64,000 nt of DNA from Planctomycetota bacterium (GTDB lineage Bacteria; Planctomycetota; PLA2; JAEUHO01). Location of the stretch: NCBI GenBank assembly GCA_030066775.1, contig JASJAY010000011.1, forward strand, positions 13,047 through 77,046, given 5' to 3'. Of the stretch, positions 52,859 through 56,755 are shown in pieces. Positions within the stretch are counted from its first letter, which is position 1, and the number at the start of each line of letters is the position of its first letter. The notes under the pieces are model-generated. The model was given only the letters and a program-made list of their open reading frames with translations, was not told the origin of the DNA and searched no databases. The translations under genes were made by a program, and so were the position numbers.

Positions 52859-55800
52859 TCAAGCCGAGAGCGTGTCGGCGGCGACGGTCTCGTCGCCCTC
52901 GAACGTGAGCCACTCGCCCGGCTCGTCGCCGCTGGCCTCGTAGTTGCCCAGTCGGTAGACGTGCTCGCGGTAGTTGAGCAGGTCGATCAACGACATCGTC
53001 TGGACGGCGCGCAGGGTGACGAGCTGTTCGGTGAGGCGGCCGGCGTGCCGGAGCAGGTCGGCGAGCACGCGGGTGCCCTCGGCGCGCGCTGCCTCGGGCC
53101 CGACCTTGGCCCAGAGGTCGAGCGCCTGGCGCGACTCGTTCTGGTCGCGGCGGATCGCGCGCCACGTCGCGCGCCGCTCCCGCTTGCCGCCCTTGCCGTG
53201 CTGGCGCCACCAGCGGTAGAAGCGCAGCCACAGGAACGGACGCGGCAGCAACGACAGCGGGTGCATGGGCCGCTGCTGTGCCTCGATGCGCGTCTCGCGC
53301 AGGATGTCCTCGCACGAGAGCAGCTGACGCACGCCGTTCATGTCCGCGCGATAGACCGCGACGGCGGCACGCACGTGCTCGTGGCCGAAGCGCGATGCGT
53401 CCACGCCGATGTGCTTGGCGACGTCGTCCAGGAGCCCTTCCTTGAGCAGGCCGGCGACACGCCGCACGTCCCACTCGGCGCGCTCGCGCTCGTCGGCGAT
53501 TTGACGCACGAGTGTCGGCCCTGCGCCCAGGAAGCGCAGGTCGTTCCAGACACCGAGGTCGTCGCCATCCCAGGTGGCGCCACCGGGGATGCGCACACCG
53601 AGGTACTCCGAGTCGAAGCGCGCGCGCAGCCACAGGCACGCCCAGACGAGCGGTCCGCGCATGCGGCTGATCTTGCGCACGGCCGTGGCGAAGTCCGCCT
53701 GGGCCGCGAGGTCGACGTCGTGCCGCGCCTTGGGCCGGCGGATCTCCTTGATCGACTGGATCAGCCAACGCACGACGCTGCCGATGTAGCGCACCGTGCG
53801 GCCGATCATGCGGAAGGGCACGAGGAACGCACGTCCGCCCGCGAGCCACGACTCGTATACGCGGTAGAGGTTGAGCACGCGCTGGTCCTTCGGCCGCGTG
53901 TGCAGCGGATACGTCCCGAACACACGCCGGAAGAGGAGGCGGCGGTCGGAGCGCAGGTTGGTCAGGACGGGCATGCCGAAGCGCTCGGCGATCTCGCGGT
54001 CGCGCTGGGGATCGTCGTCGAGGAAGTGCAGCGCCGTAAACGCCGTCGTCACGTACTCGAGGTTGCGCGCGGGCAGGTCCTTCGTTTCGACGTCCCCCGG
54101 CAGGATGCTGCCGGAGGCGATCCAGCGATCGTAGCGCGCCCGCTCCGCGTCCGTGACGTAGGGCAGCTCGTCGAGCGGGATCGCGTAGCGGTTGTACTCG
54201 ACGATCAACCGGGCGGCGGACTGCGCGACGGCCTTGGAGATGTAGCTGAACCAGATGTACGGGCCGCGGAAGGTCGGCCGCGTGCGATCGAGGTCAAGGA
54301 TGCGAAGGGCCTTGCGCTCCTTCTTGTCGATGCGGTCCGAGAGCCGGCGCAGCTGGCGGATCGCGGGATTGCCGAGCAGCTGGTTCGTCGTGCGCGTGTC
54401 GGACTCGCCGAAGAGCGCGCCGTCGAGGTTGTCGCGGTAGAGCAGCACGACGCGCTCCATCGCCTCGGTCAGGCCGCCCGCGCGTGCACCCGACTGGGCC
54501 TCGACCATCCACGAGCGCACGGCATCGATGAAGCACCGCCGGCGCGCCTCGCCGCCGCCGGGATACCCCTCGCCGTGCACGCGTTCCTCCGGCGCGAGCA
54601 CGCGCCGGTCGAGCACGCGGGTATCGCGCTCCATGTGGCGGCCCTTGAACGTCTCGGTCAGGCCGAGGAACTGCGCCTTCGCCGTCTGCTCGAAGAAGAA
54701 GGTCGCTTCGCCCGCGATGCGCCGCATCCACCAGCCCAGGCCGAGCACCACGAGACAGATACCGCCGAGCACGTAGATGGGCACGCCCACGAACGTCTTG
54801 AGCCCGTCGCTGAGCCAGGTGAGGAAGTCGCCCGTGGCGAAGCTCAGGAGTCCTTGAACGAGCGCGTAGAAGCCGCCGAAGATCACGAGCCGATATGCGG
54901 GGCGCATGGCGCCCTTCACCATCGCGGTGCCGACCCGGTCCACGAACTCCGACGGCGTCACGGTGCCGTAGAGGTCCGCGAACCAGAACCAGCGGTCGTG
55001 GTGGCGTTTCATCTCCTTCGCGGCGGAGTGGCATGCGGCGGCCACGACCTCGGCCTCGGTCATGCTCGGCACGAGCCGCGGCACGTACTTGCGCAGGACG
55101 GGGATCCAGCGCAGCGGCCAGCGCGAGAAGAGCCGCACGACGCGCGACGTGCGCTCGACGAAGTCGTCTCCCATCTCGGCCTGCAGCTCTTGCGGGTTCA
55201 TGCGGGCCAGGACGTCGATGCACGCCTCGGCCGGGATGTCACGCACGGTGCCCGTGGCGGGCTGGGTCTCGCGGCGCCGGCGCGTGTGGCCCTGGGCGCG
55301 CGCCTCGGCCACGGTGCGGATGCGGATGGCCGCGACCTCCGCGCGTTCGTCGTCGGGCGAGGCGGCGAGCAGCTCGCGCCACTGGCGGTTGATCGCGGCC
55401 CGCAGGCGGCGGGCGCGCACCATCACGCGGTCCGTCTCGCGTGCGGCGGCGGCGCGCTCGCGGCGGTTCGGGTAGAGGATGATGTTGCGGTTGAGCAGGT
55501 GGCCGTAGCGACGCACCAGCCGGTCGAGACCGCGCGCGAGGAAGCCGAACGCGCGCAAGAGGCGCAGGATCGGCAGGAGCCAGCGCAGATAGCGCGCGAG
55601 CCGGAAGAGCCGGAACAGGCGGATCGCGCGACTGCCTCGACCCGCGTTTGCCGACGCCTCGGCCATCTCCCCCAGCACGAGCAGACCGAAGGGCAACGAC
55701 GGCAGGAAGTCGATCACGAAGTGGCGCCGGAACCAGCGCCACTTGCCGTCGACCATGCCGAGCTTCACGAAGAACTCGAGCAGGAAGAAGCAGCACGCGA

Positions 55801-56755
55801 ACGTGTCCGCGAGGGCCAAACCGATGCGCACTTCGTCCGAGAGCTCGACCACCCACTCGACGACGAGCGAGCCGAGCACGAAGAAGATCAAGAAGACGAT
55901 CCAGCGCTCGAAGCGCGCCACGCCGCGCGTCCCGAAGCGGGCCTCGAGCTTCGACTGGAGCCGGCGCTCCTGCTGCTCGTTGAGCAGCCGCGCCCGCTTG
56001 CGCAGGAGCCGCTTGCGCGCGCGGCCCCGCCGCGTCTCGATGTGCTTCACGTGCCAGAGGATGTCGTCCGCGACGAGCGCCAGGTGGCGCGCGGCGCGAT
56101 CGGGGGCGATGTCGTCGATGCCCGTGAGCACGACGTCGGCGCGGTCGAGGAGGTGGGTCGCCCACTGCTTGCGCTGCTTCTCCGTGGGCGGCGTCGCGGC
56201 GACGGCGCGCACCATGGCATCGCGTACGGGTGCCCGGATGGCCTCGAGCGGCTCGAGCGCGCATCCGCGGGAGAGGCCCTCGCGTTCGAGCAGGGTGAGC
56301 TCGGCGAGCATCTCGTAGCAGTCGTCGGCGTCGATGACGTCGGCCGCGCGCTCGCGCCAGCGTCCGACCTCGTCGTTCATGAGGTCGTCCACGAGCGCCT
56401 GCACGTCGGTGCGGACGTCGCCGTCGACCTCGTAGATGTCGAGCTCCTCGCGCCAGGTGCCCATGTCGGCGAGGGTCGGGTGGCCTTTCAGGCCGTCGAA
56501 GCCGGGCTCGGTCTTCGCCAGCACGGGCAGCGTCGCCAGGAGGTCGCCTTCGATGCCCGCCAGGCGCGTGGCGCGCTCGGGTGCGGAGCGCTCGCTGTCG
56601 CCGGTCGCGGCGAGGAGGCGGTCGAGCAGGTCATCGAGGCTGACGGCGCCGCCCGCGGGCACGCCGGCCGGGCCGCTCACGTCGTCCGGCTCCTGTCCCG
56701 TGTCGTCCCGCATCGCCCCCATTCTCGCCGCGGAGCCGGGGCGTCGCGAGCCCAA
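52859..56755 (-). CDS. large (1298 aa) membrane protein with a voltage-sensor-like S1-S4 module and a long uncharacterised C-terminal region
   Basis: TM helices followed by S4-like RAIRLFRLFRLARYLRWLLPILRLLRAF (Arg every third residue); no recognisable pore loop; high GC3 on this strand (opposite-strand ORF 52961..56794 is an artefact). Confidence 0.6.
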   Translation of the reverse strand: MGSRRPGSAARMGAMRDDTGQEPDDVSGPAGVPAGGAVSLDDLLDRLLAATGDSERSAPERATRLAGIEGDLLATLPVLAKTEPGFDGLKGHPTLADMGTWREELDIYEVDGDVRTDVQALVDDLMNDEVGRWRERAADVIDADDCYEMLAELTLLEREGLSRGCALEPLEAIRAPVRDAMVRAVAATPPTEKQRKQWATHLLDRADVVLTGIDDIAPDRAARHLALVADDILWHVKHIETRRGRARKRLLRKRARLLNEQQERRLQSKLEARFGTRGVARFERWIVFLIFFVLGSLVVEWVVELSDEVRIGLALADTFACCFFLLEFFVKLGMVDGKWRWFRRHFVIDFLPSLPFGLLVLGEMAEASANAGRGSRAIRLFRLFRLARYLRWLLPILRLLRAFGFLARGLDRLVRRYGHLLNRNIILYPNRRERAAAARETDRVMVRARRLRAAINRQWRELLAASPDDERAEVAAIRIRTVAEARAQGHTRRRRETQPATGTVRDIPAEACIDVLARMNPQELQAEMGDDFVERTSRVVRLFSRWPLRWIPVLRKYVPRLVPSMTEAEVVAAACHSAAKEMKRHHDRWFWFADLYGTVTPSEFVDRVGTAMVKGAMRPAYRLVIFGGFYALVQGLLSFATGDFLTWLSDGLKTFVGVPIYVLGGICLVVLGLGWWMRRIAGEATFFFEQTAKAQFLGLTETFKGRHMERDTRVLDRRVLAPEERVHGEGYPGGGEARRRCFIDAVRSWMVEAQSGARAGGLTEAMERVVLLYRDNLDGALFGESDTRTTNQLLGNPAIRQLRRLSDRIDKKERKALRILDLDRTRPTFRGPYIWFSYISKAVAQSAARLIVEYNRYAIPLDELPYVTDAERARYDRWIASGSILPGDVETKDLPARNLEYVTTAFTALHFLDDDPQRDREIAERFGMPVLTNLRSDRRLLFRRVFGTYPLHTRPKDQRVLNLYRVYESWLAGGRAFLVPFRMIGRTVRYIGSVVRWLIQSIKEIRRPKARHDVDLAAQADFATAVRKISRMRGPLVWACLWLRARFDSEYLGVRIPGGATWDGDDLGVWNDLRFLGAGPTLVRQIADERERAEWDVRRVAGLLKEGLLDDVAKHIGVDASRFGHEHVRAAVAVYRADMNGVRQLLSCEDILRETRIEAQQRPMHPLSLLPRPFLWLRFYRWWRQHGKGGKRERRATWRAIRRDQNESRQALDLWAKVGPEAARAEGTRVLADLLRHAGRLTEQLVTLRAVQTMSLIDLLNYREHVYRLGNYEASGDEPGEWLTFEGDETVAADTLSA

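Follow-up and report, generated by a model that had tools for sequence, protein, structure and literature searches.

The window analysed here, a stretch of 64,000 nucleotides from a Planctomycetota MAG, carries on its minus strand a gene for a large membrane protein that PGAP names "ion transporter" (MDJ0973394.1). The original prediction of an open reading frame at 52859-56755 held with one correction, namely that it lies on the minus strand. Its length of 1298 amino acids fits a TTG at 56755, up to which the frame stays open; the GenBank start, an ATG at 56713, gives 1284 amino acids. Residues are numbered here by the 1284-residue version, and adding 14 yields the earlier numbering. With a GC content of 0.94 at third codon positions (GC3), this is the coding frame. 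The gene and its parts are as follows, with the evidence for each in brackets:

52859..56713, minus strand, whole coding sequence including the stop codon (GenBank MDJ0973394.1, GC3)
55928..56713, minus strand, N-terminal cytoplasmic all-helical domain, residues 1-262 (AlphaFold2 model 2, alignment)
55550..55927, minus strand, voltage-sensor domain (VSD) S1-S4, residues 263-388 (Pfam, hydropathy, family profile, Foldseek, conservation in 204 sequences)
55469..55549, minus strand, S4 extension and post-S4 motif FGFLARGLDRLVRRYGHLLNRNIILYP, residues 389-415 (AlphaFold2, conservation)
54956..55468, minus strand, cytoplasmic insert between S4 and TM5, residues 416-586 (AlphaFold2, S4-TM5 distances, conservation)
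54674..54955, minus strand, TM5-TM6 helical hairpin, residues 587-680 (hydropathy, AlphaFold2, conservation, loop lengths)
52862..54673, minus strand, C-terminal all-alpha cytoplasmic domain of about 600 residues, 681-1284 (AlphaFold2, alignment, conservation)

The four helices of the sensor lie at residues 269-290 (S1), 295-320 (S2), 330-352 (S3), and 359-388 (S4). AlphaFold2 builds the bundle from helices 262-288, 293-320, 324-355, and 370-402, and hydropathy analysis likewise yields four consecutive TM helices. The Pfam Ion_trans profile (PF00520) matches with 29.2 bits against a gathering cutoff of 25 (E 6.8e-7), over profile positions 4-114 of 241, i.e., S1-S4 only, and is matched by 30 of the 31 family members. 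This half-domain match is the sole cause of the "ion transporter" name, a systematic mis-annotation by PGAP. A family profile of the VSD region matched, at E<=0.01, 94 different channels with a VSD and a solved structure, the best being the KvAP VSD (2.4e-7). Two AlphaFold2 models (pLDDT 83.6 and 85.6) both superpose on the KvAP VSD, with a Foldseek probability of 1.00, a TM-score of 0.55-0.66, and an rmsd of 4.1-4.6 Å. The voltage-sensor-like module originally proposed for S1-S4 is thus borne out by sequence profile, by predicted structure, including the suggested Foldseek comparison with VSD structures, and by a gating-charge network that the family has conserved. Neither an amphipathic soluble helix nor an unrelated transporter fold, the outcomes named earlier as speaking against a sensor, arose in structure prediction.

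The key residues of the sensor are E286 in S1; D303, C307, F310, E313, and K317 in S2; and R330, D335, and P341 in S3. S4 carries seven in-phase arginines (R359, R362, R365, R368, R371, R374, and R377) in addition to R384 and R387; the S4 string first quoted for this protein was located at residues 362-389, with arginine at every third position, as described. The outer acidic residues E286 and D303, a charge-transfer centre of F310, E313, and D335 with K317, and the six to seven arginines at every third S4 residue together make up the gating-charge apparatus. We assessed its conservation in 204 non-redundant family members with a median identity of 34% to the query. An acidic residue at 313 is present in all 204, D303 in 202, K or R at 317 in 201, D or E at 335 in 190, and E or D at 286 in 175; position 310 is Phe in 151 and Leu in 52 more. 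Both the S2 motif D-x6-F-x2-E-x3-K and the S3 Asp are conserved among these relatives. Each S4 arginine is present in 145-177 of the 204, and at least four in-phase basic residues occur in 182, with three or fewer in about 11% of members. These data show that purifying selection acts strongly on every part of this apparatus throughout the family, and that S1-S4 is a genuine canonical VSD with a complete gating-charge apparatus. By the charge distribution of its loops, the VSD has the usual orientation, which places the two termini and every large domain on the cytoplasmic side.

The original prediction also stated that the sensor is followed by neither a pore loop nor a selectivity filter, and the family data agree. 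The S5-P-loop-S6 module expected after a short S4-S5 linker is absent, judging by TM spacing and Ion_trans coverage: the next TM helix follows S4 only after 211-218 residues (10th-90th percentile), a gap occupied by the folded insert of about 216 residues, and the pore half of the Ion_trans profile (positions 115-241) has no match. The hairpin that comes after the insert, itself without a Pfam match, has hydrophobic cores at 609-627 and 641-666, separated by a short outer loop of variable sequence (15-23 residues, 10th-90th percentile, in 232 relatives). Across the same 232 sequences, no re-entrant pore helix and selectivity filter were found between the last two TM helices, and the filter motif T[VI]G[YF]G occurs in none. 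The folded insert, the short loop, and the missing filter motif speak against a 6TM P-loop voltage-gated cation channel of the Kv or BacNav type. The two hairpin helices are very long in the AlphaFold2 model (38 and 52 residues) and both reach far into the cytoplasm; their cores are almost purely hydrophobic, TM6 is glycine-rich, and P605, L609, G650, C653, G660, and W662 are each conserved in at least 187 of the 204 members.

The remainder of the protein was originally described as being of otherwise unknown function, and indeed no relative was detectable for the roughly 1,100 residues outside the VSD, be it in Pfam, NCBIfam, PADLOC, or the PDB (sequences and, by Foldseek, structures); in the anti-phage defence models of PADLOC-DB, no family matched at E<=1. 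Apart from three very short strands, nearly all of the AlphaFold2 model consists of alpha-helices, and the monomer is compact (pTM 0.82). The weakly conserved N-terminal domain, helical over residues 26-260 in model 2 (pLDDT mostly >85), returned only insignificant 14-3-3/TPR-like Foldseek matches; its last element is a strongly basic pre-S1 helix (RKRLLRKRARLL...QERRLQSKLEARFG). S4 continues as one unbroken helix to about residue 402 in both models (369-402 and 370-402), and the segment behind it holds the nearly invariant R394, D397, R398, L407, and N408, as does S4 with R387. The insert, helical with two short strands and of almost constant length in the family, ends in a conserved ADLYGTVTPSxFVDRVG motif, in which D580 is invariant. 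The C-terminal domain carries the motifs LLYRDxLDGA, SDTRTT, GPYLWF, YNRxAIPL, TALHFL, DRRxLxRxxFGTYPLH, RKIxRMRGP, LRARFDxEYLG, and LVTLRxVQT, as well as the invariant residues R1013, R1017, R1030, and D1034. Searching the effector part for Walker A, HExxH, GGDEF, or any other recognisable catalytic or ligand-binding motif returned nothing, and neither its CX5R nor its DDD strings are conserved.

The protein belongs to a large, undescribed, Planctomycetota-specific family of inner-membrane proteins of about 1,200-1,600 residues. We found the family in 140 GTDB species genomes, almost all of them Planctomycetota, and in 662 representative clusters; two finished genomes, those of Kolteria novifilia Pan216 and Ca. 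Uabimicrobium amorphum, hold a member. VSDs without a pore had been called rare in bacteria, which stands for described systems only, this family being common within one phylum. Every complete locus spans the whole family HMM, so that the architecture is fixed, independent assemblies included. Among the top 150 of the 662 representative matches, full-length proteins have an N-terminal region of about 370-660 residues before the C-module, with about 15 shorter entries, apparently fragments, as exceptions. No domain fusions occur in the family, and the search for conserved operon partners proposed earlier came back empty: the neighbourhoods show no partner kept family-wide. Full HMM coverage, the lack of fusions and of a family-wide neighbour, and the compact monomer model suggest that the whole protein is probably a single functional unit.

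Our preferred reading, to which we assign a probability of roughly 0.45, is that a sensor of voltage (membrane potential/PMF) is coupled to a novel effector and does not serve a classical P-loop channel. Upon depolarisation, S4 would move outward. A presumably rigid S4 helix would run about 15 residues into the cytoplasm with the near-invariant R387, R394, D397, and R398, and since it is continuous there, its movement could be passed directly to a cytoplasmic all-alpha assembly. This assembly would consist of the length-invariant 216-residue insert and the 600-residue C-terminal domain, with the TM5-TM6 hairpin as a possible second membrane anchor. As output, our favoured guess is that voltage controls whether the C-terminal domain is active or what it binds. 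More speculatively, the cluster of invariant basic and acidic residues R1013, K1014, R1017, R1030, and D1034 would suit an anionic ligand, for instance a lipid head group or phosphate compound. The absence of any recognisable catalytic or ligand-binding motif from the effector part speaks against the sensor-effector reading. We see a real, if less than even, chance that this is the first prokaryotic VSD hard-wired to a non-channel effector, with a module of about 900 residues and unseen fold by which bacteria across Planctomycetota would turn membrane potential (PMF state) into a response in the cytoplasm or a remodelling of the membrane.

The main rival to the sensor-effector reading is an unconventional voltage-gated channel, in which TM6 of a putative oligomer lines a P-loop-less pore, comparable in principle to that of MscS, CorA, Orai, or bestrophin, and the VSD gates it via the cytoplasmic domains. 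The order of S1-S4 followed by TM5-TM6, the Kv channels as best VSD matches, and the PGAP name all point this way, the hairpin helices reach into the cytoplasm as stalk helices do in some channels without a P-loop, and the conservation of TM5-TM6 (G650, C653, G660, and W662) exceeds the needs of a simple membrane anchor, which favours a channel. However, S4 and TM5 are kept apart by the folded insert, the hairpin offers a hydrophobic core with no re-entrant loop, filter motif, or Pfam pore match, and beyond the VSD the structure matches no solved channel by Foldseek; on balance, we regard this rival as rather unlikely. Less plausible is that the VSD is an evolutionary relic serving as a membrane scaffold only, with no voltage response and with the function residing in other domains. 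TRP channels and RyR/IP3R contain VSD-like domains that lack voltage dependence, and the approximately 11% of members with few in-phase basic residues would fit such a loss. Yet the full charge network persists at only about 26-34% overall identity, with four to seven S4 arginines in 182 of the 204, and because the acidic residues, the aromatic plug, and the S4 arginines are all retained, a pure scaffold is disfavoured and we consider it improbable.

The sensor might also conduct by itself, as Hv1 does, carrying a proton or "omega" current, with the rest of the protein being regulatory. Conduction through the sensor is known for VSD proteins that lack a pore domain, namely Hv1 and isolated VSDs, and gating-pore currents typically require a missing charge (PMC10651576). 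Here, the run of six to seven S4 arginines is uninterrupted and the hydrophobic-plug Phe/Leu at 310 is conserved. Moreover, S1 core positions 271-285 are acidic in at most 1 of the 204 sequences, so the family has no equivalent of the selectivity-filter Asp that Hv1 carries in mid-S1 (D112 in human), and we judge this reading very unlikely. As to an artefact, whether an S4-like string arising by chance in an arginine-rich, high-GC proteome, a mis-assembled frame, or a fusion of two genes, spurious long open reading frames are common in high-GC DNA, and in this protein (13.3% Arg) a run of at least six in-phase arginines appeared in 126 of 20,000 shuffles (0.6%). As shuffling reproduces it, the arginine pattern alone is suggestive, not decisive; nevertheless, an artefact is refuted by the GC3, by the same full-length architecture in all complete, independent loci, including both finished genomes, and by the profile and structural evidence for a VSD.

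If the sensor-effector reading is true, voltage sensors may have uses in bacteria besides driving classical channels, the architecture of all bacterial VSD proteins known to us so far, and the protein would be a bacterial counterpart of VSP or sNHE. The family joins a canonical sensor to about 1,100 residues without a known relative, conserved across a whole phylum, and because it is phylum-wide and present in cultured strains (Kolteria novifilia Pan216 and Ca. Uabimicrobium amorphum), it is an experimentally reachable system. Questions that come within reach include the other outputs of voltage sensors, how bacteria read their own membrane potential, and how VSDs and effectors recombine in evolution.

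With Kv-type sensors (KvAP, Kv2.1, Kv1.2, and Kv4.2, which correspond to the N-terminal half of PF00520), the planctomycete protein shares S1-S4, an arginine at every third residue of S4, the S3 motif D-x5-P, a predicted fold superposing on the KvAP VSD, and an S2 motif spaced as E283/F290/E293/R297 of Shaker. It differs in having neither an S4-S5 linker nor an S5-P-loop-S6 pore, in the invariant C307 one turn below D303 in S2, and in the position of the VSD between two large cytoplasmic domains. CorA, MscS, and bestrophin resemble it in architecture only, with a TM hairpin, a short outer loop, and long helices reaching into a large cytoplasmic domain; the planctomycete protein shows neither sequence nor Foldseek similarity to them and has no GMN-type loop motif, and we know of no member of these families with a VSD.

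As non-channel VSD proteins, the review PMC10651576 lists Ci-VSP, Hv1, sNHE, and a protozoan cyclase, all of them eukaryotic. The planctomycete family is bacterial, whereas VSPs are, to our knowledge, otherwise eukaryotic. SLC9C1 (sNHE) and the VSD-containing adenylyl cyclase of protozoa each combine, in a single polypeptide, a VSD with a catalytic or transport module that is not a channel and is regulated by the VSD (PMC10651576). Both are found only in eukaryotes and have a different domain order; the planctomycete protein has no detectable Na+/H+ exchanger, cyclic-nucleotide-binding, or cyclase domain, and neither Na_H_Exchanger nor cNMP_binding matched any of 31 members at E<=1. Hv1/VSOP and TMEM266 (HVRP1) likewise combine a pore-less VSD with an S4 helix that extends into the cytoplasm. 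In Hv1, however, S4 has three arginines and is followed by a coiled coil only, whereas the planctomycete S4 has six to seven and is followed by about 880-895 residues including a TM hairpin, which rules out a VSD-only protein of the Hv1 type. Ci-VSP differs in its PTEN-like phosphatase and C2 domains: the planctomycete protein has no Pfam match to either, its CX5R strings (498, 727, and 1026) lack conservation in the alignment, and it has two extra TM helices and an all-alpha cytoplasmic part about four times larger. What it shares with Ci-VSP is a pore-less VSD and, in the coupling proposed here, an S4 joined directly to a cytoplasmic effector by a short basic segment. Unlike the S4-S5-linker lever of Kv and Nav channels, this coupling would follow the logic of Ci-VSP and Hv1, in which a cytoplasmic element comes immediately after S4.

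The open reading frame at 52859-56755 of the window, 1298 codons when counted from a TTG, is a real gene, as originally predicted, and lies on the minus strand. The window has a GC content of 70% and contains many spurious overlapping ORFs; against this background, a GC of 0.94 at third codon positions, versus 0.72 and 0.47 at first and second positions, identifies the frame as coding. GenBank lists the identical product as MDJ0973394.1, with its start at the ATG at 56713 and a length of 1284 rather than 1298 aa. We number residues by this product (numbers in the original prediction are higher by 14). 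The sole prior label is the automatic description "MAG: ion transporter [Planctomycetota bacterium]". Rfam gave no RNA elements upstream of the gene.

The original prediction placed an S1-S4 voltage-sensor domain (VSD) in this protein, and the S4 string on which it drew is indeed present at residues 362-389. S4 carries seven Arg between residues 359 and 377 at exact three-residue spacing. Since the protein is rich in Arg (13.3%) and at least six in-phase Arg occur in 0.6% of shuffled sequences, this motif by itself is a lead and not a proof. Four independent lines, however, establish a true VSD: Pfam, profile searches, predicted structure, and functional residues. The Pfam Ion_trans model (PF00520) matched with 29.2 bits, against a gathering score of 25 (E 6.8e-7), and the match was confined to the S1-S4 half of the profile (positions 4-114 of 241); the same partial match was found in 30 of 31 family members. 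A profile of residues 245-415, built from 20 family members and run against PDB sequences, retrieved 94 distinct sequences at E<=0.01. Among the matches listed, all were voltage-gated K+, Na+, HCN or CatSper channels aligned over their sensors, led by the KvAP VSD (2.4e-7) and Kv2.1 (3.3e-7). We built two AlphaFold2 models, covering residues 190-1284 (pLDDT 83.6, pTM 0.82) and residues 1-420 (pLDDT 85.6). In both, the four helices matched the KvAP sensor (1ors_C, 2kyh) with a Foldseek probability of 1.00 (TM 0.55-0.66, rmsd 4.1-5.0 A over 130-140 columns); neither an amphipathic soluble helix nor an unrelated transporter fold, the outcomes that would have spoken against a VSD, emerged from the models. 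Finally, the functional residues stand at canonical spacing: E286 in S1; D303-x6-F310-x2-E313-x3-K317 in S2; D335-x5-P341 in S3; and R359 to R377, plus R384 and R387, in S4. The S2 spacing equals that of Shaker, which we take to be E283/F290/E293/R297. The protein thus shows every testable feature of a VSD, and artefactual explanations for the ORF and the domain are excluded.

Conservation of the sensor was assessed in 204 non-redundant relatives with a median identity to the query of 34%:

D303: 202/204
E/D313: 204/204
K/R317: 201/204
D/E335: 190/204
P341: 203/204
F310: 151/204, with Leu in a further 52
Individual S4 Arg: 145-177 of 204 each
At least four in-phase basic S4 residues: 182/204

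Two membrane-embedded cysteines are also almost invariant: C307 in S2 (window ~55793-55795, minus strand), found in 198/204, and C653 in the later helix TM6 (~54755-54757, minus strand), found in 187/204. C307 is placed one turn of the helix below D303, the outer acidic residue, and on the side that lines the sensor crevice. Metal or redox sensing, or packing, are possible roles for these residues.

The VSD has the standard orientation: the segments before S1 and between S2 and S3 are basic, while the S1-S2 and S3-S4 loops are acidic or neutral. Since these charges give the usual topology, the N-terminus, the insert that follows S4 and the C-terminal domain would all be cytoplasmic. In both AlphaFold2 models, S4 runs on into the cytoplasm as a single helix to about residue 402. 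This extension bears the strongly conserved motif FGFLxRGxDRLVRRYGxLLNRN, in which R387 and D397 are each found in 202/204 relatives and R394 in 193/204. It leads into a folded, mainly helical insert, predicted to be cytoplasmic, and the distance from S4 to TM5 is almost fixed across the family (median 216 aa, 10th-90th percentile 211-218). The TM5-TM6 hairpin has membrane cores at residues 609-627 and 641-666, within very long predicted helices of 38 and 52 residues, and is strongly conserved at P605, L609, G650, C653, G660 and W662. The predicted absence of a pore loop and selectivity filter was borne out: the outer loop between TM5 and TM6 is short (median 17 residues, 15-23) and variable in sequence, a filter of the T[VI]G[YF]G type was found in 0/232 relatives, and the hairpin region drew no Pfam match, not even to the pore half of Ion_trans. 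Many motifs are conserved in the C-terminal ~600 residues, which were modelled confidently as an all-alpha domain. Five residues are invariant in 204/204 relatives, namely D580, just before TM5, and R1013, R1017, R1030 and D1034.

Outside the VSD the protein resembles nothing that we could find, in agreement with the original view of a protein of otherwise unknown function. No homolog of the non-VSD parts was obtained from Pfam searches of sub-segments at E<=10, from NCBIfam or PADLOC, from a 12-sequence profile of residues 400-1284 run against all PDB sequences, or, at a significant level, from Foldseek searches of both models against the PDB. Matches of the N-terminal domain to 14-3-3/TPR-like folds were discarded (rmsd ~15 A, E>0.3). 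The motifs LHFLDDDPxRD and RDxLDG, ~138 aa apart, raised the idea of a terpene/prenyl synthase, which was ruled out: D899 is conserved in 99/204 and D900 in 64/204 relatives, and the fold is absent among the 50 Foldseek matches listed. CX5R, Walker A, HExxH, GGDEF and EAL motifs were absent or not conserved, and hhalign comparison of ten segments against each other gave no internal repeats. Mean-field direct coupling analysis of the 204 sequences, aimed at contacts between TM5/TM6 and the VSD, returned as its top couplings runs of adjacent columns beside indels, which are alignment artefacts.

These observations bear on what the sensor might serve. A relic VSD, no longer sensitive to voltage, is unlikely given the conserved charge network; the sensor is intact and under selection. 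Proton conduction through the sensor itself, as in Hv1, is likewise improbable, since the mid-membrane acidic residue is missing from S1 in essentially all of the 204 members (present in at most 1) and S4 shows no charge gap. As the main rival we see an unconventional channel, whose pore would be built without a P-loop and lined by the TM6 helices of an oligomer. In its favour, the hairpin glycines are conserved unusually strongly; against it, the TM5 and TM6 cores are hydrophobic, a 216-aa insert separates S4 from TM5, and no channel-like structural match was found. We consider it less likely than the mechanism proposed below, though the most serious of the three.

Word-indexed searches yielded ~50 full-length relatives, and an exhaustive search using a profile of only the post-S4 module retrieved 662 representative clusters at E<=1e-3, 370 of them at E<=1e-30. 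Among the 150 of 662 listed, the module of full-length members (~1200-1600 aa) starts at ~340-660, always after an N-terminal region with room for the sensor, and some 15 shorter entries appear to be fragments. The ~290 weaker matches (E between 1e-30 and 1e-3), outside those listed, might hold C-modules in other architectures. When one genome of each GTDB species was scanned, 140 genomes proved to have a relative. The 80 loci returned comprise 77 with the label of a Planctomycetota lineage; among these are Pirellulales, Gemmatales, Planctomycetaceae and Phycisphaeraceae, together with the cultured Kolteria novifilia Pan216, whose homolog maps to about 1.934-1.939 Mb of NZ_CP036279.1 (L079), and Ca. 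Uabimicrobium amorphum, which engulfs bacteria. The other three, all from MAGs, are labelled Verrucomicrobia (L032), Ectothiorhodospiraceae (L053) and "uncultured bacterium"; for the first two, the labels could reflect mis-binning or rare lateral transfer. Wherever a locus is not cut short by the end of its contig, its match spans the full family HMM (positions ~15 to ~1275); no long extra segments occur in 232 members, and the S1-S4 part of Ion_trans is the only domain match in the six longest members. The single exception is a 1523-aa homolog on an ENA contig (P0019) with an MBOAT domain after its C-terminus (PF03062, 3e-08), an isolated case that is probably a read-through or gene-call fusion. 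The architecture is fixed and self-contained.

The gene has the following neighbours:

51824-52846, plus strand: short-chain dehydrogenase (SDR), convergent, at the 3' end of the gene; beyond it, an NYN-domain gene and an ABC transporter
56876-57871, plus strand: ORF of 332 aa, divergent, at the 5' end
57878-59365, plus strand: ORF of 496 aa, divergent, at the 5' end
59358-60311, minus strand: SelD (TIGR00476, 4e-96)
60427-61911, minus strand: SelA (PF03841, 6e-128)

The selenocysteine machinery lies just beyond the two divergent ORFs, which have no Pfam or NCBIfam match. Relatives with 50-58% identity (P0004 and P0013) retain the block, and more distant members have unrelated neighbourhoods. 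The original prediction had proposed a search for conserved operon partners. Looking up five homolog contigs and clustering all flanking ORFs at the 80 GTDB loci gave no family-wide partner: the commonest neighbour families (SelA/SelD, the two ORFs, SDR, NYN, ABC transporter) reach no more than 10 of the 80 loci, all within the window's own syntenic subclade. Since no neighbour is shared family-wide, the protein would appear to act as a self-contained unit. At one locus (L004), the gene of a distant homolog (P0031, 7001-11188) follows a gene for a Na+/sulfate-citrate-type symporter (PF00939/PF03600, 5499-7004) and overlaps its stop by 4 bp, which suggests co-transcription at this locus; the arrangement was not seen at the others. 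Elsewhere in the window, 13 tRNA genes lie within 2.4 kb on both strands (24881-27279; minus strand: Thr, Lys, Asn, Glu, Met, Arg, Phe, Gly, Trp; plus strand: Pro, Leu, His, Gln), a lone tRNA-Ala lies at 45197-45275, and a very long ORF of ~2,000 aa spans 35853-41903 on the plus strand with a coding-like GC3 of 0.89.

Reasoning from sequence and predicted structure, as for every functional claim made here, we infer the following mechanism. Upon depolarisation, S4 would move outward, and its rigid extension would pass the movement directly to the cytoplasmic all-alpha assembly, which the TM5-TM6 hairpin would tether to the membrane a second time. The output would be a voltage-dependent change of state in the C-terminal domain. 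More speculatively, an anionic ligand would fit the cluster of invariant R/K/D residues at 1013-1034.

A 2023 review (PMC10651576) lists as VSD-bearing classes the voltage-gated channels, sNHE/SLC9C1, a protozoan adenylyl cyclase, Ci-VSP and Hv1, and its non-channel cases are all eukaryotic. The protein described here has a VSD by every feature tested, lacks the tested defining features of P-loop channels, Hv1, VSP and sNHE, and a full-text literature search found no paper that connects VSDs to Planctomycetes or reports a family of this kind. We therefore conclude that it is a VSD-coupled protein with a new, uncharacterised partner module, widespread in one phylum. The coupling logic proposed for it is the same as in Ci-VSP and Hv1 and differs from that of Kv channels.
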